This document shows positions 28,391-43,920 of a stretch of DNA of 43,920 nucleotides, piece after piece. The DNA lies in contig JACQKT010000014.1 in assembly GCA_016204355.1 (NCBI GenBank), forward strand, positions 1 through 43,920, written 5' to 3'. The notes beneath the pieces are model-generated. The model was not told the DNA's origin and searched no databases. It was given only the letters and a program-made list of their open reading frames with translations. Source of the stretch: Candidatus Liptonbacteria bacterium. GTDB lineage: Bacteria > Patescibacteriota > Minisyncoccia > UBA6257 > 2-01-FULL-56-20. Position 1 is the stretch's first letter. Each line of letters opens with the position of its first letter. A program made the translations under genes and the position numbers.

Positions 28391-29593
28391 CTACACAAGG
28401 TTCTCGAATCCTTCGAGCGCTTTTGTCTTTCCGTGCTCCCTTATTTTTTCAAGCGCTTTGGCTTCGATTTGTCTTATTCGTTCCCTGGTTACGCCAAAGA
28501 CTTTCCCTACCTCCTCGAGTGTGTGTGTTACTCCGTCCTCCAAGCCGAACCGCATTTTCAAAATTTCCCGTTCGCGTTCGGTCAAGTCGACTATTATTTC
28601 TTTTATAAGGTCGCGTATCAAAGTCTGCGCGGCCTGCTGGACCGGCGTCACGTTCTTTTCGTCCGGAATGAAGTCTGAGAGCGTCGAATCTTCTTCGTCG
28701 CCGACCGGCTGTTCGATTGAAAGGACTTCCTGCGAAATTTTCTGAATCTGCCTTACTTTGTCCACCTCTAAGCCCATTTCCGCGGCAACTTCTTCCGCCA
28801 AAGGATCGCGCCCCAATTCCTGTATCAGCTGGCGCCGCACTTGGGCATACTTGGAAATTGTTTCCACCATATGCACCGGAATTCTTATGGTTCGCGACTG
28901 GTCTGCAAGCGCTCTTGTTATCGCCTGGCGTATCCACCATGTCGCATATGTCGAAAATTTAAATCCTTTGTGATAATCGAATTTTTCCACTGCGCGCGAC
29001 AAACCGATATTGCCTTCCTGAATCAAGTCGAGAAGGGTCAGGTTCGGCGTCCTGTTGGCATAGCGTTTTGCTATCGAAACCACGAGGCGGAGATTCGCTT
29101 TCATTAGTTTCTGCCTCGCTTCTTCGCTCCCTTTGATAATTTTTTTGGCAAGGTCTTTTTCTTCGTCCTTTGTCAAAAGAGGCGTTCGCCCTATTTCTTT
29201 CAGATAAACCTGGACCGCATCCGGCGTTCCGCGCTCGAATTCGAGGGCGTGCTCTAGTTCCGCACTTCCCACCTCCTCTTCTTTCGAAAGATTGATAAGC
29301 CCGCCGGTTTCGATGACTTTTATGTTGGCTTTGTCGAGTCGGTCGTAAATCTCGTCAAGAAGCGAGACTTCTTTTTCTATTTTCGGGAAATAATAAAGTA
29401 TTTCGTTGTCGGTAACGAAACCTCTCGGTTTGCCGCGGTGAATAAGTTCGTTCAGCGCGGATTCATTGATTTTTGAGAGTGCTTTGCCGGCAGCCGGTTT
29501 TTTCCCTTTGGCATGAATTTTGCCTTTTGCAGGCTTGTAGCCAACCCTTCGTTTAGACTTTTTTTGCGCTTTTCTTTTTTTCGCCTTTTTCAT
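28391..29593 (-). CDS. rpoD: Primary sigma-70 factor
   Basis: [41 protein letters not shown]; Lys-rich N-terminal tail. Confidence 0.97.
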
Positions 29594-33030: not shown

Positions 33031-34989
33031 ATGCAAAATTTTTCGAGAAATAATTTTTTCACCGCCCCCGTTTTTGTTCTCGCTCTTATTTTGGCCGTTT
33101 CTTTGTCCCTTATGCTTTGGGCGTCTTCGGGCGATTCGGCAATAATGGACGAACTGGCGCATATCCCCGCGGGCTACGGATACGTCAACAATCTCGATTA
33201 TCGCTTGAATCCCGAACACCCTCCTTTGGTAAAGGCGTTGTCGGCTATTCCTCTCGTTTTTTCAGATTTGAATTTTCCGACAACCCAAAACTCCTGGAAG
33301 AATGAAGTTAACGGCCAATGGACGATGGGAACGTCCTTTCTATACGAATCCGGCAATGACGCGGATTACATATTGCGTTCTGCCAGAATTGCTCCGATAT
33401 TCCTGACTTTGATATTGATAATTCTGATTTATGTCTGGTCTGCCAAACTCCTCGGAAACTGGTGGGGGCTTTTGTCGGCTTTCATGTTCGGATTATCACC
33501 GACAATTCTTGCGCACGGCCATTATGTAACAACGGACATCGGTGCGGCTTTCGGAATTGCTCTTTCGACGTATTTTTTTATAAAATTTTTGTTTTCTCCG
33601 TCGCTTTGGCGTCTTTTTGCCGCGGGGCTAGCCTTCGGAGCGGCACAACTAATGAAATTCTCGGCAGCTCTTCTTATCCCCTACCTGGCCGTTGTCATGC
33701 TGTTCTTTTTCGTCTATATGGTTTGCAAAGACTGGGAAAAAACCGCCGCCGGGGCGAGACTGAAAAGATTTTCGTTGCGCGCTTTCCGGTATTTCAAATC
33801 ACTGATAATTATTTTTGTCGTAGGATATATAGTTATAGTTTATCCGGCGTATTTCATCTTCACGTTAAATTATCCCGCCGAAAAACAGGCGTCGGACACG
33901 GAATTCATACTGACGTCGTTCGCGGGCGGCCCCACTCCGGCGGGCGAAATTTGCAGTCCGGCGAGATGTCTTGCGGACCTGGACATTTGGATGTCAAGAA
34001 ATTGGATAACAAGGCCGTTCGCGGAATATCTTTTGGGCCTTTTGATGGTGATACAACGCTCAGATGGAGGAAATACGAATTATTTTATGGGCGAGGTTTC
34101 TTCAGCGGGTTCTCCGGCTTATTTCCCGACGGTTTATCTACTTAAAGAAACGATTCCGGCGTTGATAATAATTTTTACCGGATTCCTTCTCGCCGCAATT
34201 TCGGCATTAAAAAAGTTTTTTGGGGGGATCAGAAATGCCATCAAATATTTTTTTACGGACTATATCGGCTCGAACTTCGCCGAATTTTCGATGTTTGTTT
34301 TTGTTCTTTTTTACTGGTTATACAGCGTTAAAAGCCCGCTTAACATTGGCGTCCGCCATCTCATACCTACCTTCCCTTTCATTTACATACTGGCCGCGAG
34401 CGCCTGGAAAAGATGGCTCTATTCCGGCCTCGCCCTGGAACTGAAACCTTTATCCGAGAGAATTGTTTCCTCAGTTAAATCAATCGGCCCGCTTTTTCTA
34501 AAATTTTCTTTCCTTATGGTGCTTCTTTTCTGGGTGGCTCTTGAAACTGCCGGCAATGCTCCCTATTTTCTTTCGTATTTCAACGAAGCAGGAGGTGGCA
34601 CCGTCGGGGGGTACAGGTTCGTAACGGATTCGAATTACGATTGGGGACAAGACCTTCTTCGCCTGCAAAAATTCGTAGACAGGCATCCGGAAATCGACAA
34701 AATAGCCATCGATTATTTCGGAGGAGGAAATCCCAAATATTATTTGGGCAACAAGGAAGTCGACTGGAGTTCTTCGAAAGGAAACCCTGCAACTCAAAGC
34801 ATGCATTGGCTTGCAGTTTCGGTTAACACCCTACAGGGAGCCATACAGCCCTTGGCGCCCGGACAAACCAGAAATTCCGCAGATGAATACGGTTGGCTTA
34901 ACTCGATAAGGGCCCGCGAACCGGGGCTTGGAGGTTTACCTCTGCCGAATTTCAGGGCAGGAACTTCGATATTCGTATACAAACTTTAA
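33031..34989 (+). CDS. GT-C membrane glycosyltransferase (ArnT/PMT-like)
   Basis: MDELAH, NPEHPPLVK, TTD, multiple TMs, DSNYDWGQD. Confidence 0.85.
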   Translation: MQNFSRNNFFTAPVFVLALILAVSLSLMLWASSGDSAIMDELAHIPAGYGYVNNLDYRLNPEHPPLVKALSAIPLVFSDLNFPTTQNSWKNEVNGQWTMGTSFLYESGNDADYILRSARIAPIFLTLILIILIYVWSAKLLGNWWGLLSAFMFGLSPTILAHGHYVTTDIGAAFGIALSTYFFIKFLFSPSLWRLFAAGLAFGAAQLMKFSAALLIPYLAVVMLFFFVYMVCKDWEKTAAGARLKRFSLRAFRYFKSLIIIFVVGYIVIVYPAYFIFTLNYPAEKQASDTEFILTSFAGGPTPAGEICSPARCLADLDIWMSRNWITRPFAEYLLGLLMVIQRSDGGNTNYFMGEVSSAGSPAYFPTVYLLKETIPALIIIFTGFLLAAISALKKFFGGIRNAIKYFFTDYIGSNFAEFSMFVFVLFYWLYSVKSPLNIGVRHLIPTFPFIYILAASAWKRWLYSGLALELKPLSERIVSSVKSIGPLFLKFSFLMVLLFWVALETAGNAPYFLSYFNEAGGGTVGGYRFVTDSNYDWGQDLLRLQKFVDRHPEIDKIAIDYFGGGNPKYYLGNKEVDWSSSKGNPATQSMHWLAVSVNTLQGAIQPLAPGQTRNSADEYGWLNSIRAREPGLGGLPLPNFRAGTSIFVYKL

Positions 34990-35020
34990 TTTCAATTATT
35001 ATTTATATAGATTCAGAATT

Positions 35021-35062
35021 AAAGAGAAACCCCCTGTTTTTTGTTGCAGGGGGTTTCTCTTT
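35021..35062. terminator. Bidirectional intrinsic terminator
   Basis: Perfect 16-bp arms AAAGAGAAACCCCCTG / CAGGGGGTTTCTCTTT. Confidence 0.85.
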
Positions 35063-35210
35063 TCCCTTTCGGGGCGGTTCTGCCTGGGCAAGGTTGATCC
35101 CTTATTGGTTAAATTTTTTCCCCTCAACCGCAATCCGGAGATAACGGCGCTTTTGGAGTAAATTTGTTTTTTTATTAAATGGAATCCCTTGTCTTTAAAG
35201 TGAACCTGCC
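35021..35210 (-). ncRNA. Candidate rod-shaped structured RNA (6S RNA-like)
   Basis: Nested helices GGTTC/GAACC, CAAGG/CCTTG, GATTCC/GGGATC, A-rich bubble, AAATTT/AAATTT, apical CCG/CGG; upstream promoter and downstream terminator. Confidence 0.55.
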
Positions 35211-35212
35211 TA

Positions 35213-35242
35213 ATTATGGTTACATTTATCTGAAAAAATCAA
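35213..35242 (-). promoter_or_regulatory. Sigma70-type promoter for the candidate ncRNA
   Basis: TTGATT-N18-CATAAT. Confidence 0.5.
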
Positions 35243-35317
35243 CAGAAATCAGTGTATTTCGGGTTGATAACTCTATGAATACCTGTTGAGAAATATGTGG
35301 AAAGAGAGGTTTCCCTT

Positions 35318-35860
35318 TCATGAATGCATATTTTTTTGTTCTCTGACTTTTCCGTAGTACCCCGATAGAACCCAATGCACAAGGAGAGCGCTTACAATGC
35401 CGATTGCGGCGCCTGCCACTATATCAAGAGGCCAGTGCACTCCGACAAAAATCCTCGCTAGACCGATTATCAAAGAAAGAATAAAGTACCATATTCCCCA
35501 TCGGCGATTCCATATGTAAATAATCAAAGATAAAGCGAAAAAAAGAGCTGCGTGACCGGAAGGCATGGAACTTCCGCTCTCGGAGATCAAAGCTTGGAAG
35601 CTCAGTGTTTCAAGCGGCCTTGGCGAGTAATAAAAAAAATTGATTATTTCTGTTATAAGACCCCTGCTCAAAATTACGGCGATCGCCGCTTCGCTGGAAA
35701 AGAAAAGTTTTAACCGCCATCCCGGCTGCAGAATAACAAGCCAAATAAATGCCGCGTACAAAAAATAAGGCAGGTATTTGGCGGCAAAAATGCCCACTAC
35801 ATCCAAAAAAAAGCCGCGCCCGCTGAGTCCGTGAATAAAATTGAAAATCAGAGAATCCAT
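35318..35860 (-). CDS. PAP2 phosphatase (undecaprenyl-diphosphatase BcrC-like)
   Basis: RP, SMPSGHA, ARIFVGVHWPLD. Confidence 0.9.
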   Translation of the reverse strand: MDSLIFNFIHGLSGRGFFLDVVGIFAAKYLPYFLYAAFIWLVILQPGWRLKLFFSSEAAIAVILSRGLITEIINFFYYSPRPLETLSFQALISESGSSMPSGHAALFFALSLIIYIWNRRWGIWYFILSLIIGLARIFVGVHWPLDIVAGAAIGIVSALLVHWVLSGYYGKVREQKNMHS

Positions 35861-35884: not shown

Positions 35885-36088
35885 TTATTTCCTGGAGAAA
35901 GCCAATAAACCCAAAAACCTTGCTCGTTTTATGGCTTCAGCCAGTTTTCTCTGGTGCTTGGCGCACACACCGGTGTGCCGGGGGTCTATTATTTTTGCCT
36001 GGCTGGAAATGAACTTCTTAAGAAGATCTGTTTCCTTATAATCGATCTCCTTCATATTCTGCGAACAAAAAAAACATTGTTGAGGCAT
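35885..36088 (-). CDS. rpsR: 30S ribosomal protein S18, zinc-binding form
   Basis: [22 protein letters not shown]. Confidence 0.96.
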
Positions 36089-36131
36089 GATTTTTAATAT
36101 TGTTTGTTGATTGATAAAACTGATTTATTTG

Positions 36132-36596
36132 TCAGAAAGGCAGGTCTTCGGCTTTTATTTCTTCGTTGTCGTCTATATTTATCACCGGTATATCGTTTTC
36201 CTGTTTGCCGACCGTAGAACGCCCTTCCCGAGTTTCTTTTGGTGGGAAATTGCCGTCTGCGGGACGCGCCGGACGTGGACCGAGCTGCATGCGCTCGCAA
36301 ATGATTTCCGTTGTTTTTCTGGCTTGCCCCTGTTTGTCTTGCCATGAACGCGTTTGAATTCTTCCTTCTATCAAAACTACGCTTCCTTTCGTAAGAAATT
36401 GGCTCGCCACTTCCGCCTGCCTTCCCCAGACTACGACATTGTGGAATTCCGTTTCTTCCTTTCTGCTGCCGCTTTTATCGTTCCAAACACGGTTTGTCGC
36501 GACGCTGAAACTGGTAACCGACTGCCCTCCGGGGGTAGTGCGCAATTGAGGATCCGCCGTCAGCCTGCCCAAAATGAAAATTTTATTTAGATTCAT
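36132..36596 (-). CDS. ssb: Single-stranded DNA-binding protein
   Basis: MNLNK..GRLTADP, EGRIQTRSW, C-terminal DLPF. Confidence 0.97.
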   Translation of the reverse strand: MNLNKIFILGRLTADPQLRTTPGGQSVTSFSVATNRVWNDKSGSRKEETEFHNVVVWGRQAEVASQFLTKGSVVLIEGRIQTRSWQDKQGQARKTTEIICERMQLGPRPARPADGNFPPKETREGRSTVGKQENDIPVINIDDNEEIKAEDLPF

Positions 36597-36597
36597 C

Positions 36598-36662
36598 CCG
36601 TTAGAGATAGGATAAGCTTAAAAAGCGCATCCCTGATGTTATAGTTAAACTTCTTTTAACGG
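36598..36662. repeat. Short element with terminal inverted repeats abutting the ssb start
   Basis: CCGTTAGAGA ... TCTTTTAACGG. Confidence 0.5.
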
Positions 36663-36698
36663 CCTTGTGTGATTGCTCGACAAACATTGCGGGATTCA

Positions 36699-37112
36699 TT
36701 ATTGAAGAATTTCTTTAAGCTGCTTTTCAAGAGCTTCGTTGCTGAGATGCGAAGGCTGTTTTTTTTCAATGGTCGGAGCGACTGAGGGTTTTCTTCTAGC
36801 GGGGTACTGATGTTTTTCCTTCGATTTCATCAACGGCGGAGTGATGATAAGAAATCTCAAGACAATCGGCTGAACGCGCAATTGTTTCTCCAAACCTGCC
36901 ATTTCGGACGGTAAAATGTTGAAGTGGAAATAACCAAAAAAGGCTTCTTCCCTCTTTTCAATGGGATAAGCGAGAGGAATTCTTAAAAGCGGGCTTTCGA
37001 AAATAATTTCTCCGCCGGCACGTTTCAGCGATTCGCCCATCCGTTTAGCGCCCTCTTCGTCGGCCGACACGAAAGAAATTTCGTAGGGTTTTTTATCGTT
37101 AAATTCTTCCAT
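36699..37112 (-). CDS. rpsF: 30S ribosomal protein S6
   Basis: YEI, LAYPI, VLRFLI; rpsF-ssb-rpsR synteny. Confidence 0.9.
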   Translation of the reverse strand: MEEFNDKKPYEISFVSADEEGAKRMGESLKRAGGEIIFESPLLRIPLAYPIEKREEAFFGYFHFNILPSEMAGLEKQLRVQPIVLRFLIITPPLMKSKEKHQYPARRKPSVAPTIEKKQPSHLSNEALEKQLKEILQ

Positions 37113-37150: not shown

Positions 37151-40100
37151 TCAATTTCCGGCAGCTTCTTTATTCTGTTCCGTCTTTTGCGACGACAGCG
37201 GAGACACTCCTTCAGCATAAGTTCTTTCTTCTTTTTCTCTCTTTCCCCCGGTGGGTACAAGCCGGCCGATTATCACGTTTTCTTTCAATCCGCGGAGTGA
37301 ATCGACACGTCCTTCAAGAGAAGCCTGGACCAGTACGCGCGCCGTATCCTGGAAAGAAGCTGCGGAAAGGAAACTTTCCGTGGAAAGAGCGACTCTCGTA
37401 ATACCCAAAAGAAGCTGCTGCGCTCTGGCCGGCTGTTTGCCTTTTCGTTTCAACTCCCTGTTAATTTCAAGGAACTTTGATTTGTCTATGACTTCTCCGA
37501 CAACCAATTCCTGCGCATCGCCGGTTTCTTTAATTCTGAGCCTTGAAAACATTTGTCTTACCATGACCTCTATATGCTTGTTGTTTATCGAAGCTCCTTC
37601 CGCTGAATATATTTTTTGGACTTCGTTGATTATATAGCGAACCACTTCTTTGCTACCTTTGTACTCAAGGAGTTCCTGAAGATCGATATGCCCTTCGGAA
37701 AGCTGTTGTCCGGCGACGACATCATCACCGACCTCAACGAAAAGAAGCGCGGCTCTCGGTACGGAATACTCCATCGTTTTTTTGTTCGCTTTCTTTTTCT
37801 TTGTTTCCCTCTTTTCTTTGACCCCGATGGTTATTATTTTAAGGGCTCCTTTTTGTTCTATTTTTTCGACTTTCCCGTCCGCAGACGACAGAATCGCCTT
37901 ACCTTTCGGAGGGCGCGCCTCAAAAAGTTCTTCTACGCGTGGCAAGCCATGTGTGATATCTAAACCCGCCACGCCTCCGACGTGGAAAGTTCTCAATGTG
38001 AGCTGCGTTCCAGGTTCTCCTATCGACTGCGCCGCGATTATTCCCACTGCTTCGCCCGTCTTTATGGGTTCGTTCTTGCTCAAATCGAGCCCGTAACAGC
38101 GGCGGCAAAAACCGTAAAGCGTTTTACATGAAATCGGCGAGCGGATTTTCACGGATTCAATTTTAGATTCCTGAATAAGTGCCGCGTCGCTTTTTTCTAT
38201 TATATTGCCTGCGCGCACAATTATTTTTTTTCCGGATTTAATATCCTCGGCTGCGGTCCTTGAGAAAAGAAGTGTTTCAACGGACTGGCCGATGTCTTTA
38301 GCGTCTTTCAAAAAGACTTCTATGCCTTCAGTGGTGCGGCAATCGTCATCTTTTATGGTAAGTTCCTGTGAAACATCTACAAGCCTTCTTGTTAGGTATC
38401 CTGCCTGAGCAGTTTTCAGAGCCGTGTCGGTCATTCCTTTCCTGGCGCCTCTCGTGGAAATGAAATATTCAAGGACGCTGAATCCTTCCTTAAAGGATGA
38501 CTTTATCGGCAGCTCCAAAGTTTCGCCCTGCGGGTTTTGAACCAATCCTTTCATTCCCATCATCTGAATAGGCTGGGCCCACGACCCTCTGGAGCCGGAA
38601 TCTATGATTTGATGTATCGGATTTCCTTTCTCGAAAGTCGATGTAACATATTTGGTTACTTCTGTTTTGGCGTTTTCCCAAACGCTTATAACCCTTGCCT
38701 TTCTTTCGGCATCAGTCAGAAGGCCTTGTATGTATTGCTCGCGAATGACGGCTATCTGGTCCTCGGCATTTTTGATAATGCCCTTCTTTTCTTTCGGAAT
38801 CACCAAGTCGGCCATAGCCCATGTTATTCCGGAGCGGGTAGCCATTTTGAAACCGAGATCTTTAACTCTTACGAGAATTTCCGTCGCTTTTTCCAAGCCG
38901 AGATGAACAACGAGCGATTCGATAAATTTGGAAAGTTTACGCTTATTGAATGTATCTTTCGCTTTGAAATTTTCCGGTACTTCTCCCAGAATGCCGTTGA
39001 AAATAGCCCTCCCTAAAGTGGTTTTTTCGCTGCCCATTCTGATCGGAGCATGGAGAGAAACAAACCCGTTTTCATAAGCAATAAGGCCTTCTTCGAGACT
39101 TTCAAAAGCCTTGTCCTTGCCCTTGCCATTTTCGTCGATTCTCGTTAGGTAGTATATTCCCAAAACAACGTCGTTGGTCGGCAATGCCACAAGGTCGCCC
39201 GTGGCGGGTTTCAGAATATTGTGATTGGCGGACATAATCTCGGCGGCTTCCTTTTGAGCCTGATCCGAAAGCGGCAAATGGACGGCCATCTGGTCTCCGT
39301 CGAAATCCGCGTTGAAAGCCACGCAAACAAGCGGCGGTATTTGTATGGCAAGCCCTTCTATAAGAAGCGGTTTGAACGCCTGTATTCCGAGACGGTGCAA
39401 TGTCGGCGCGCGATTCAAAAGAACCCTGCGGTCTTTGATTATTTCTTCGAGTATTGCGTAGATTTCGTCTCCGGCCTGCTCGATAAGCCGATTTGCGTTC
39501 CTTATAGTGTGAGCCATTCCCCTCTTAATTATTTCATGGATGACAAACGGCCGGAAGAGCTCGAGAGCCATTTTTTTCGGCAGACCGCATTCGTCCAAAT
39601 CGAGATTCGGCCCGACGACGATTACGGAACGTCCGGAGTAATCGACACGTTTTCCGAGAAGATTTTGCCTGAACCTTCCCTGTTTCCCCTTCAACATGTC
39701 GGCGAGAGAACGCAGCGGTCTTCTTTGTGCGGACATTTGCTGCGTGCCGAATCTCGTCGAATTGTCTATCAGTGCGTCAACCGACTCCTGAAGCATTCTT
39801 TTTTCATTTTTGATTATCACCTCCGGAGCTTTTATTTCCATGAGCCGCTTCAACCTGTTGTTTCTGTTTATAACGCGGCGATAAAGATCATTAAGGTCCG
39901 AAGTCGCATATCTTCCTCCATCCAGCGCCACCATAGGGCGGAGATCCGGAGGCAGAACAGGCAAGGCCGTGAGAATCAGCCACTCTGGGCGGATTCCGTT
40001 TTTGAACATGGAACGGAAAAGTTTCAACCTTCTCAGGGCTTTGTTCTCCGCCGGTCCGGATTGTTTTGGAGAACCGGTTTCTTTTTCCATTTTTTGGATC

Positions 40101-43100
40101 TCGCTCTTGAGATCCATTTTTTCGAGAATCTTTCTTATCGCTTCCGCGCCGCTGGCAGCAATAAAAACGTTCCCGAACCTTCTGCTCAGTCTGAAATATT
40201 CCGATTCGCTGAGAACGAGTCCCGGCCTGAGATTGAGAAGGGTCGATTTTATCTGACTGGCCGCGTATTCCAGCTCATCGGAGGCTTTCTTGACGACTTT
40301 TTTGGTGTTTCCGGTTCTGACTGTTTTTATTTTTCCTTTAAGTTCACGCTCGATTTCCTCCAGTGCCGCTTTTCGGTTTCCTTCGTCAACCTCAGTGACA
40401 ACGTAATCGACGTAATAAATGACGCGCTCGAGTTTCGAAGAAGGAACGTCGAGCATCAGGCTTAGTCTTGAAGGTATGGCTTTGAAAAACCATATATGCG
40501 CAACCGGTGCCGCCAAATTTATATGCCCGAGCCTTTCGCGTCTCACGGAAGCCCTGGTTACTTCTACGCCGCATCTGTCGCAAACAACGCCCTTATATCT
40601 TATTCTTCTGTATTTGCCGCAATAACATTCGTAATCCTTGACCGGACCGAATATGCGCTCCGAAAAAAGACCGTCTTTCTCCGGGCGCTGAGTCCGATAG
40701 TTTATCGTTTCGGGTTTTATCACTTCTCCGTGTGACCACTTGTTTACTATGTCCTCGGGCGAAGCGGGACTTATTTTCAGCGCCTTGAAATCATCTCTGT
40801 GGCTCGCCTCGGATTCATAAATGGGCTCGATATTCATTGAAAGAGCTTTCAGTTCGCTTACAAGGACATTGAACGTAGCAGGAATGTTTGGTTCCTTTAT
40901 CTGTTCGCCGCGTATTATAGACTCGTAAGCAGCCGAACGCCCCATGACGTCGTCGGATTTGATGGTCAGCATTTCCTGCAAAACATGGCGCGCGCCGTAG
41001 CCTTCCAACGCCCAGACTTCCATCTCTCCGAATCTTTGTCCTCCGAATTGAGCTTTTCCTCCGAGCGGTTGCTGGGTAATCAGCGAGTAAGGGCCTATCG
41101 AACGCATATGCACTTTGTCTTCAACAAGGTGATTGAGTTTCATCATGTAAATTGTTCCTACAGTAACCTTTTGGTCGAAAGACTCTCCCGTTTGCCCGTT
41201 GTAAAGAACCATTTTCCCGTCCTCGGGCAAATTGGCTTTTTTGAGTTCCGCCCTTATTTCCTCTTCGTTGGCCGAATCCAGTCCCGGAGTAACGGCGCGA
41301 TAGCCCTGCTCGGAGGCGGCCCAGCCGAGGTGCGTTTCCAAAATTTGTCCGAGATTCATACGCGAAACCACGCCCAAAGGATTCAAAATTATGTCCACGG
41401 GCGTTCCGTCTTCGAGATAAGGCATATCCTCAACCGGCCTCACCTGCGAAATCACGCCTTTGTTCCCATGCCGTCCCGCCAGCTTGTCGCCAGCCTGGAC
41501 TTTCCTGAGATGCGCTACCTCGACCTGAATTCGTTTGATAACTCCTACCTCCAATTTGTCTCCTTGGTCACGGGAAAATATTTTTACGCCGACAACGCGG
41601 CCGCGTTTGCCGTGAGGCATTGTGAGCGAAGTATCTTTAACGTCGCGAGCTTTTTCTCCGAAAATCGCGCGGAGTAATCTTTCTTCGGCGGTCAGCTCCG
41701 TTTCTCCTTTCGGAGATATCTTGCCCACGAGAATGTCTCCGGCTTTAACTTCGGCGCCCATACGCACTATTCCTTCCTCATCCAAGTTTTTCAGTTTTTC
41801 TTCTGCTACGTTAGGAAGGTCCGGCGTTGTTATTTCCGGACCGAGTTTGGTGTCACGGACGTCGCAATAAAAATCTTCAATATGTATGGAAGTAAAAAGA
41901 TCGTCGCGAGCAACGCGTTCTGATATTATTATCGCGTCTTCGAAGTTCGCGCCTTCCCATGACATGAAGGCAACTTTCAGATTTTGTCCGAGAGCAAGAA
42001 TTCCGTCTTCCGTCGACGGCCCGTCTATCAAAACTTCTCCTTTTTTAACCGCCTGCCCTTGCGAAACAAGAGGTTTTTGGGAAATGCACGTATATTGGTT
42101 AGAACGCTTGAATTTCGTAAGAGTGTGGACTTTCTTTTCTTTGCCGTATTGCACGGTAACCGAACCGGCGTCAACCGCCACTATTTTCCCGTCTGCTTCC
42201 GCGCGCACAACGTATCCGGAATCGCCGGCGGATTTTTCTTCCTGTCCGGTCATCACGTGCGGTGCCTTCGGCTTTATAGAGGGAACGGCCTGCCTTTGCA
42301 TATTCGAGCCCATCAGCGCGCGGGAGGCGTCCGTGTGCTGCAAAAACGGGATAAGCGAGGCGGCTATACTTACGAATTGATGTGGAGAAACTTCTATCAA
42401 GTCAATCTCTTCGGCAGGATAAGTTCCAACCTCTCCGCTGAATCTCGCTTCCAAAACGTCGCCGGAAAGTCTGTCTCCTTCCGTGCGCGGAACAGCCGAG
42501 TGAACTATCTTGTGTTTTTCCTCTTCAAGCGCGTCCAGCCAGACTATTTCATGGGTAACTTTTCCGTTTTTCACTTTGGCATAAGGCGTCACCAAAAACC
42601 CGAAATCGTTCACACGCGCGAATCCGGAAAGATAGTTTATCAAACCGATGTTGGTCCCTTCCGGAGTAAGTATCGGGCATATTCTCCCATAATACGAATG
42701 ATGAACGTCACGGACTTCGAAGCTTGCATGTTCTCTCCTTAGTCCTCCCGGACCGAGGGCGGAAAGGCGTCTCTTGTGCTCGAGTTCGGCCAAAGGATTC
42801 ACCTGGTCCATGAATTGCGAAAGCTGCGAAGAAGCGAAGAATTCCTTAACTACCGCGTTGATGGGACGGAAGTTTATAAGCTGGGCGGGAGTAAGAGAAT
42901 CCTTGTCGAGAGTGGACATTCTGTCCTGGATAATTCTTCTCAGGCGGGCCAAGCCGACGCGAAGACGTCCCTGGAGGAGCTCTCCGACAGACTTGAGCCG
43001 CCGATTGCCGAGATGGTCTATATCGTCGGGCTTTGCCGCTGGATCGTTGTTCAATTTTATAATTTCCCTGACGATGGAGATAAGATCATCAAGCTTAAGA

Positions 43101-43920
43101 AGGCGTTCTTCCTCTTTTTTCTTGTTAACTACCGCAAGCCGCTGGTTGAGCTTGAATCTCCCTACCGGCGAAAGGTCGTAACGTTCGAAGCGCTGAAATA
43201 TGGAATCCACAAGGTTCTTTGCCGTAGCAGGCGTTGCGGGATCTCCCGGCCTCAAACGGCGGTATATTTCGACATAAGATTCGTCGATGTTCTTGGCGAC
43301 ATCTTTTTTCAGAGTGGCGTCCATGTACCGGATGGAACCTTTGTCTATGTCCTGGAATCTCGACTTCAATTCTTCTTCCGACGCTCCGAAAACTCTCAAA
43401 AGGTCCGTCACCGGAACTTTCCTGTTCCTGTCTATTTTTACACCTATCACTCCGTCGGGATCGGTTTCGAACTCGAGCCACGCTCCGCGGTTCGGTATGA
43501 CTTTGGCTCCGAACAACTGGCGGTCGTGCCAAACCGACGAAGTAAAATAAACACCCGACGATCTTATCAATTGCGAAACAACAACTCTTTCAACACCGTT
43601 TATTATAAAAGTTCCTCTGTCGGTCATGGCGGGAAAATCGCCGAAATATATTTCTTGCGAATTGGGCTGTCCCGCTTTCTTGTTTTCTAGCCTTACTTTT
43701 ATATAAAGAGGTATTTCGTATGTTCCGTCTTTATAAATGACTGTTGCTTCGTCGGCTTTCGGTTTTTCAAAACGAAAATCCTCGAAATAAAGTTCGAGTT
43801 CTTTTCCGGTGTGATCGCGTATCGGAGAAACCTCTTCGAGAAGTTCCCGCATCCCCTCCTTCAAAAACCACTGATATGATTTTATTTGTATTTCATTAAG
43901 ATCTGAAGGAACTCCTATCG
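37151..43920 (-). CDS. rpoBC: Fused RNA polymerase beta-beta' subunit, 5' end outside the window
   Basis: One frame holds beta motifs ([21 protein letters not shown]) then beta' motifs ([24 protein letters not shown]); frame stays open upstream of 43864 to the edge (..[17 protein letters not shown]). Confidence 0.96.

Follow-up and report, generated by a model that had tools for sequence, protein, structure and literature searches.

6S RNAs fold into rods of ~200 nt that open into a central bubble. They bind the housekeeping RNA polymerase holoenzyme and serve it as template for short product RNAs, copying starting on the 5' strand of the bubble and continuing into the stem next to it; their apical arm contains a '-35'-like region and their 3' bubble a '-10'-like one (PMC8876501). 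A truncated B. subtilis 6S-1 RNA without the '-35' arm completes the 6S cycle in vitro with ~10-fold weaker binding, and because this truncated form still completes the cycle, short arms are compatible with 6S function (PMC8876501). The 6S-1 variants 6S78 and 6S82cp (Ganapathy et al. 2022, PMC8876501), which have no '-35'-like region but still bind polymerase (about 10-fold more weakly) and template product RNA in vitro, combine a bubble with short arms, as do the two types of RNA described below (types A and B); the variants were engineered, whereas the RNAs reported here are natural and their arms are conserved by covariation. Two diverged 6S-type RNAs can also share one genome, as in B. subtilis, where 6S-2 (bsrB) stands beside 6S-1. 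The bubble and its surroundings differ in sequence between the two B. subtilis copies, as they do between types A and B, and in B. subtilis these sequences determine how efficiently product RNA is made (PMC3753640, PMC3923129). More narrowly, the sequence around the bubble start site decides how well each of the two 6S paralogues is copied (PMC3753640). The pair reported here differs from that of B. subtilis in that one paralogue lacks the conserved core, the promoter classes differ, and the duplication is independent. Standard models call both B. subtilis 6S RNAs, and they miss Ms1 RNA of mycobacteria, a 6S-like rod of ~300 nt that binds core polymerase. Ms1 and type A are alike in being 6S-shaped and missed by standard 6S models, a likeness that may extend to the targeting of a different RNA polymerase form; we know of no sequence kinship between the two.

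We describe an RNA of this general design on the minus strand of the window (the whole stretch of DNA analysed, 43,920 nt). The host group consists of ultra-small bacteria without an annotated 6S RNA, and a search of one literature collection found no paper linking 6S RNA with the candidate phyla radiation, Patescibacteria, Saccharibacteria or Parcubacteria. Like 6S RNA (SsrS; RF00013), the window's RNA is rod-shaped: one stem closes it, a large A/U-rich bubble opens its centre, and another stem forms its apex; it also has its own sigma-70-type promoter, and its size is similar if the terminator is retained. It differs from 6S RNA in lacking the GGGAG/CACCCACCUGG core, in its much shorter apical arm, and in having no hairpin in the 3' bubble. 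The reading we prefer, with moderate confidence, is that the window's RNA (type A) is a second, diverged 6S-like RNA, a paralogue of the lineage's 6S RNA (type B), comparable to 6S-2 of B. subtilis.

Locus, promoter and fold of the window's RNA

The RNA occupies the minus strand of a 328-bp intergenic gap between two convergent genes. The flanking genes and the predicted elements of the RNA are as follows.

33031-34989, plus strand: PMT_2-type glycosyltransferase gene, 652 aa
35318-35860, minus strand: PAP2 phosphatase gene, 180 aa
35237..35242, minus strand: -35-like hexamer TTGATT
35213..35218, minus strand: -10-like hexamer CATAAT, spacer to the -35 of 18 nt
near G35206, minus strand: predicted transcription start, placed by its spacing from the promoter
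35076..35206, minus strand: conserved rod, ~131 nt, supported by fold, by matches to models R1, R2 and R3, and by covariation
35202-35206 with 35076-35080, minus strand: helix P1
35187-35191 with 35089-35093, minus strand: helix P2
35181-35186 with 35096-35101, minus strand: helix P3
35166..35180, minus strand: 5' strand of the central bubble (AUUUAAUAAAAAAAC) in the fold, presumed template region
35102..35110, minus strand: 3' strand of the central bubble (AACCAAUAA) in the fold
35155-35158 (CUCC) with 35120-35123 (GGGG), minus strand: helix P4
35149-35154 (AAAAGC) opposite 35124-35126 (UGA), minus strand: conserved internal loop flanking the apical hairpin
35127..35148, minus strand: apical hairpin of nine pairs with one U-U mismatch and a UCCG loop
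35064..35073, minus strand: small CCC-GAAA-GGG hairpin between rod and terminator, present in the fold
35023..35060, minus strand: terminator hairpin of 14-16 bp, common to the convergent glycosyltransferase gene

A transcript that begins at the predicted start and ends with the terminator would measure ~186 nt, of which the rod (35206-35076) accounts for ~131 nt. By its fold, the terminator hairpin (35060-35023) could terminate transcription arriving from both directions. This hairpin, given as 16 bp in the preliminary description, and the CCC-GAAA-GGG hairpin that precedes it are both found in the computed fold; the smaller of the two is not conserved in the closest homologue. The promoter attributed to the RNA is present on the minus strand as claimed, with TTGATT (35242-35237) and CATAAT (35218-35213) separated by 18 nt, but the match taken alone is at chance level (one site, against 1.2 +/- 0.9 in the shuffled 900-nt region); it gains weight because homologues keep the -35/-10 pair at an equal distance. 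The region had also been said to contain no credible open reading frame. Frames of 44, 77 and 36 aa do overlap it, but they are broken by 1- and 7-nt indels relative to the closest homologue. Upstream of the PAP2 gene, three frames of 67, 154 and 137 aa (35885-37112, minus strand) look like a cluster that we take to be S18, SSB and S6.

The lower part of the rod was largely borne out by folding. The helices GGUUC/GAACC, CAAGG/CCUUG and GAUUCC/GGGAUC are all in the minimum-energy fold, as are the A-rich bubble of 15 nt opposite 9 nt and the AAAUUU/AAAUUU helix, although the latter is not kept in the closest homologue. The apical part had been drawn as CAA/UUG and GCG/UGC stacks; covariation instead favours pairing of GCCGU-AUC with GAU-UGCGGU around a UCCG loop, with AAAAGC/UGA as a conserved internal loop. 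G-U pairs had been taken to favour the minus strand, but they do not single it out: the plus strand folds at -29.0 kcal/mol and the minus strand at -28.6, and the count of G-U/U-G versus A-C/C-A cells among type A rows (55 vs 39) gives weak strand support. A comparison of folding energy with shuffled sequence, named in the preliminary description as a refuting condition, went against the rod of the window's copy when taken alone: the rod without its terminator (35075-35207) folds at -28.6 kcal/mol with a z-score of -1.06, and 32 of 200 shuffles fold as well. The plus-strand rod has a z-score of -0.20, and the z-score of -3.9 of the longer region is due to the terminator hairpin. The window sequence by itself would not carry the claim of an RNA gene; since the rod alone folds no better than shuffled sequence, the case rests on conservation and covariation.

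Homologues and covariation of the rod

A BLASTN search of the 331-nt region against 60 relatives returned short, chance-level matches only (best E 5.9e-4 over 35 nt) and missed even the syntenic homologue, which was first found via synteny after this null result. The PAP2/glycosyltransferase pair is kept in all four congeners. In one of them (G003), the two genes are separated by a 294-bp gap holding a clear homologue that is 78% identical to the window's RNA, with flanking proteins 58-63% identical; relative to the window's copy, this homologue shows compensatory changes in the apical stem, and its promoter boxes are conserved. The gap in the other three congeners measures 46-131 bp and holds no homologue, nor was a type A copy found elsewhere in their genomes. 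Given this absence in three of four congeners, type A is dispensable.

Covariance models of growing depth extended the RNA family. Model R1, built from two sequences, matched in 6 of 125 genomes of the organism's own family within the Parcubacteria/Paceibacteria (the family genomes below); model R2, from six sequences, in 49 of 125 (E<=1); and model R3, from 17 sequences, in 72 of 125 (E<=0.01), corresponding to 50 of 87 high-quality genomes and 35 of 48 genera. Apart from nearby tRNAs, no known Rfam family reached its gathering score at the matched loci.

The modelled helices are maintained by substitutions on both sides. Among 17 type A rows, the paired fraction of cells is 86.9%, compared with 65.0% in shuffled alignments, a level that none of 500 shuffles reached; two-sided changes occurred in 25 of 29 pairs, and the covariation score was 0.562 against at most 0.133 with slid partners. 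With all 87 rows, the paired fraction was 89.6% against 59.7% when shuffled, all 29 pairs changed, and the score was 0.651 against at most 0.111; since these alignments were fitted to the model structure, their pair counts are biased towards that structure. RNAalifold, run unaided, recovers the apical domain only, so that the apical hairpin, in which 8 of 9 pairs of type A show two-sided changes, was obtained independently of the model. A MAFFT alignment of six rods had misaligned 3' halves and was unusable for structure. Conservation and covariation, which the preliminary description had named as a further check, thus came out in favour of an RNA, the rod being found in 72 of 125 family genomes with compensatory changes in 29 of 29 modelled pairs. 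The evidence of its relatives marks the locus as the gene of a genuine and conserved small RNA of rod shape with a promoter of its own.

Two paralogous types and their relation to 6S RNA

A rough tree of the 87 matches divides them into two clades, type A and type B, and the sequence motifs agree with this division. By our classification type A, which includes the window's RNA, comprises 27-31 loci in 27-29 of the 125 genomes, and type B is widespread; both types occur together in 13 genomes, the window's included. The window's genome holds a single type A copy. In genus g69 (L055/L144/L140, L147/L134), each genome holds two type A-like copies and, at the sensitivity used, no type B.

The two types are preceded by promoters of different classes. 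Type A has a TTGAC -35 element in 13 of 17 loci at an equal distance from the rod, with TTGNTT in two more, one of them the window's, followed after 17-18 nt by a weak, A-rich -10 (AAAATA, GATAAT and similar). Type B has the promoter TGnTATAAT, with a near-consensus TAYAMT -10 in all 14 loci examined, 11 of which also carry the TG extension. In a crude scan without shuffle control, a hairpin plus U-run turned up no more than 130 nt beyond the rod at 16 of 17 type A loci and at all 13 type B loci.

In type A the rod is still closed by a stem and still has its A/U-rich central bubble, a RAYAGC/UGA internal loop and an apical arm, albeit a short one; missing is the GGGAG/CACCCACC core, which type B has in common with RF00013. 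The core of type B consists of UCGGAUCAAAYAA, GGGAGGGC, a hairpin and UUGAGCCCACCCACCUGG, together with a small hairpin in the 3' bubble; where type B has CACCCACCUGG and this small hairpin, the 3' bubble of type A is A/U-rich, and -10 motif matches there are indistinguishable from chance. Common to both types are UUC(C/G)-GAUCAA, a CCGUGG-like loop and a UG-AG loop motif. In the 5' bubble, homologues read UUC(C/G)-GAUCAA-(N)YAA, from which the window's copy has diverged to UUCC-AUUUAAUAA, losing the GAUCAA that most relatives keep. Models built from type A alone detect type B copies with per-genome E-values of 1e-5 to 1e-7. Conversely, a sequence-only profile of type B, with promoter flanks removed, landed at the expected position, on the correct strand, at 5 of 17 type A loci with E<0.01; relaxing the cut-off to E<=0.25 brought the count to 10 of 17, with the window's copy at only E 0.22. 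This test is not fully independent, since the type B rows had been picked by the type A model. Because the order of motifs and helices is shared, common descent of types A and B is the simplest reading.

The divergence of the window's copy might also be that of a decaying, non-functional relic of an otherwise real family. In addition to a rod that folds no better than shuffles, GAUCAA has eroded to AUUUAA, a 7-nt gap separates this copy from its closest homologue, the apical stem contains a U-U mismatch, the -35 reads TTGATT and not TTGACT, and type A has been lost from three of four congeners. We nevertheless regard decay as improbable, as the RNA remains 78% identical to its homologue against only 58-63% for the flanking proteins, its promoter boxes have been kept, changes in the apical stem are compensatory, and 22 of 29 consensus pairs are standard in the window's copy, against a type A median of 23.

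Membership in the 6S family was examined by score and by architecture. Rfam's 6S model, RF00013, gave no match on window positions 34900-35400 even at E<=10, and none in the whole of the window's genome at the same threshold, and a further 15 type A loci were without a match at E<=1; no genome among the 125 of the family exceeds the RF00013 gathering threshold of 46.4 bits. Within the window region, Rfam as a whole gave 21 matches at E<=10, all of them sub-threshold and located on or around the terminator hairpin. By contrast with type A, type B draws sub-threshold RF00013 scores of 26.7, 20.5 and 18.6 bits in three family genomes, and of 16.1 bits in a further copy, spanning model positions 38-149. 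In these alignments GGGAG and CACCCACCUGG of type B fall on the same motifs of RF00013, such that the type B core GGGAG...CACCCACCUGG corresponds to the core of the Rfam 6S consensus. Type A is therefore not a member of RF00013 by score; its architecture is that of a 6S RNA, with a closing stem, central bubble and apical stem, all conserved, and an apical arm of ~13-19 pairs that is shorter than in the RF00013 consensus. Any sequence kinship to recognised 6S RNA is indirect and runs by way of type B, which is matched by type A models and in turn aligns with the RF00013 core at 16-27 bits, below threshold.

The copy scoring 16.1 bits is that of the window's own genome. It lies on another contig (L087:2865-3012, plus strand) beside a 437-aa gene, at the syntenic site that type B also occupies in three congeners, and was missed by the whole-genome searches with RF00013 and with our models. 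It has the promoter TGCTACAAT, the core GGGAGGGC...GCCCACCCACCUGG and a fold z-score of -3.05, and its sole meaningful Rfam match is 6S (E 0.23, model positions 42-145). This type B copy is a more canonical 6S candidate than the window's RNA. The preliminary description had suggested a divergent 6S RNA or a new class of CPR non-coding RNA. The part that stands is a conserved, covarying rod outside Rfam whose sister type aligns to the RF00013 core; as the organism's best 6S candidate, the window's RNA gives way to the copy on L087.

Beyond the family, 38 of 151 genomes in a sample of the order match R3 (E<=0.001), with one copy each outside the family. The best nine of the 33 out-of-family matches were inspected; all nine are type B-like, and none of them matches RF00013 at E<=1. 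The exact type B pattern occurs at 43 places in the species collection, of which 42 carry the labels Patescibacteria, Paceibacterota, Parcubacteria, Liptonbacteria, Minisyncoccia or Saccharibacteria, or plain 'bacterium', and one is in a cyanobacterial assembly. As far as sampled, the type A/B duplication is confined to one Parcubacteria family.

Another rod-shaped RNA to be weighed was the signal recognition particle (SRP) RNA (4.5S), for which the models RF00169 and RF01854 find no candidate in the window's genome or in four relatives, leaving a vacancy that the window's RNA could in principle fill. The protein partners are themselves scarce: Ffh and FtsY domains were not found in the window's genome, searches for the Ffh M domain succeeded in 1 of 41 family genomes, and those for the SRP54 GTPase in 0 of 5 near-complete relatives and 3 of 151 order genomes, with a strong Ffh/FtsY pair in only one of the latter. 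Furthermore, the apical loop of the window's RNA is YGNG/UNCG-like and not GNRA, the form found in SRP RNA. With no SRP RNA match, and with SRP protein domains absent here and from nearly all relatives, we rejected this identity, whose probability we consider close to nil. The scarcity of Ffh and SRP54 agrees with the statement of Nelson and Stegen (2015, PMC4508563) that Parcubacteria lack ffh and ffs.

Genomic contexts, proposed mechanism and implications

Sufficient context was available for 25 type A loci. In 10 of these (L048, L049, L055, L060, L070, L132, L133, L135, L137, L140), uvrB lies directly upstream on the same strand, with uvrA next in five and lexA next in one. PAP2 lies upstream in three, namely the window's genome (G000), G003 and G084, which group together in the tree. 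The remaining loci follow unrelated genes and often face a convergent gene. Because its contexts vary, type A appears as a stand-alone gene and not as a UTR, and the positionally conserved promoter, the hairpins that follow and the varied neighbours together make it improbable that type A belongs to a UTR or leader, or that it is a repeat element.

An element acting in cis, such as the 3' UTR or terminator region of PAP2 or a selfish palindromic repeat, would involve no RNA gene at all. Its appeal lies in the placement of the locus between convergent genes and its ending in a shared terminator, and in a patchy distribution that includes clean absence from the syntenic gap of three congeners. 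We consider it very improbable: the window's genome has one type A copy and no inverted partner, a strand-specific promoter is kept at a constant distance in homologues, the conserved unpaired motifs lack symmetry, and type A follows many different genes. Moreover, clades of the tree keep their own synteny, as in the PAP2-linked G000, G003 and G084, which fits vertical descent. A cassette-end or repeat reading was likewise rejected, the element being single-copy.

The linkage to uvrB may reflect ancestral synteny or a link to DNA repair. Type A could be a real small RNA derived from 6S RNA but re-used, no longer binding polymerase and acting instead on another protein or by base pairing, perhaps in DNA repair. 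Loss of the GGGAG/CACCCACC core shared by type B and RF00013, a promoter class unlike that of type B, and the presence of uvrB directly upstream in 10 of 25 loci (followed by uvrA in five and lexA in one) would all be consistent with such re-use, for which the conserved unpaired UUCC-GAUCAA and AAAGC/UGA could serve as protein-binding sites. However, type A retains the overall 6S architecture and the bubble motif of type B, the uvrB linkage may be mere ancestral synteny given that 15 of 25 loci, the window's included, have unrelated neighbours, and no LexA-box-like palindrome was seen by eye in type A promoters. We hold re-use to be possible but doubtful.

On the preferred reading, that of a 6S paralogue, type B would be the lineage's divergent 6S RNA, from which type A would have arisen by duplication, losing the GGGAG/CACCCACC core and gaining a -35-dependent promoter. 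What the comparisons above establish directly is the gene family, how it folds, how its promoter and terminator are arranged, and that it is related to type B; by analogy with 6S RNA we propose the following. Type A would dock in the RNA polymerase holoenzyme as a mimic of an open promoter, and could come off again once the polymerase, copying the 5' strand of the bubble, has advanced into the P3/P2 stem. UUC(C/G)-GAU at the 5' edge of the bubble, which reads UUCC-AUU in the window's copy, is a candidate region for the start of product RNAs. Both types would thus be short-armed 6S RNAs, and their different promoter classes may cause type A to be made under other conditions than type B, as is the case for the two 6S RNAs of B. 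subtilis.

In a more particular version, type A, having shed its core and standing ancestrally between uvrB and uvrA, would be a specialised polymerase regulator tied to DNA damage or outgrowth. We consider this unlikely; were it true, type A could target another form of polymerase than type B and would give a minimal cell a second and separate means of sequestering polymerase. The genomes of the family measure ~0.7 Mb, and in them type B has an extended -10 promoter and type A a -35-dependent one.

With regard to the transcription machinery of this organism, three sigma-70-family genes were observed in the genome, with frames of 402, 202 and 173 aa. The primary-type sigma of 402 aa is in the window (about 28889-29107, minus strand), and the two small ones are on two other contigs. 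Also in the window, an uninterrupted frame of at least 2255 aa (37151-43918, minus strand) runs from rpoB into rpoC, giving a fused beta-beta' subunit, which could bear on the docking of any 6S-like RNA.

Taken together, the family is well supported, and a function as a 6S-like polymerase regulator is plausible. The models built here provide a handle on a lineage-wide, short 6S-like RNA that Rfam calls in none of the 125 family genomes, and they bring to light a diverged paralogue in organisms whose regulators are very few. Should polymerase be the target of both RNAs, these tiny genomes would devote two genes to global transcription control, and their naturally short arms would offer a test of what a 6S RNA really requires. 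If type A acts otherwise, it would offer an example of a 6S RNA that has been re-used.
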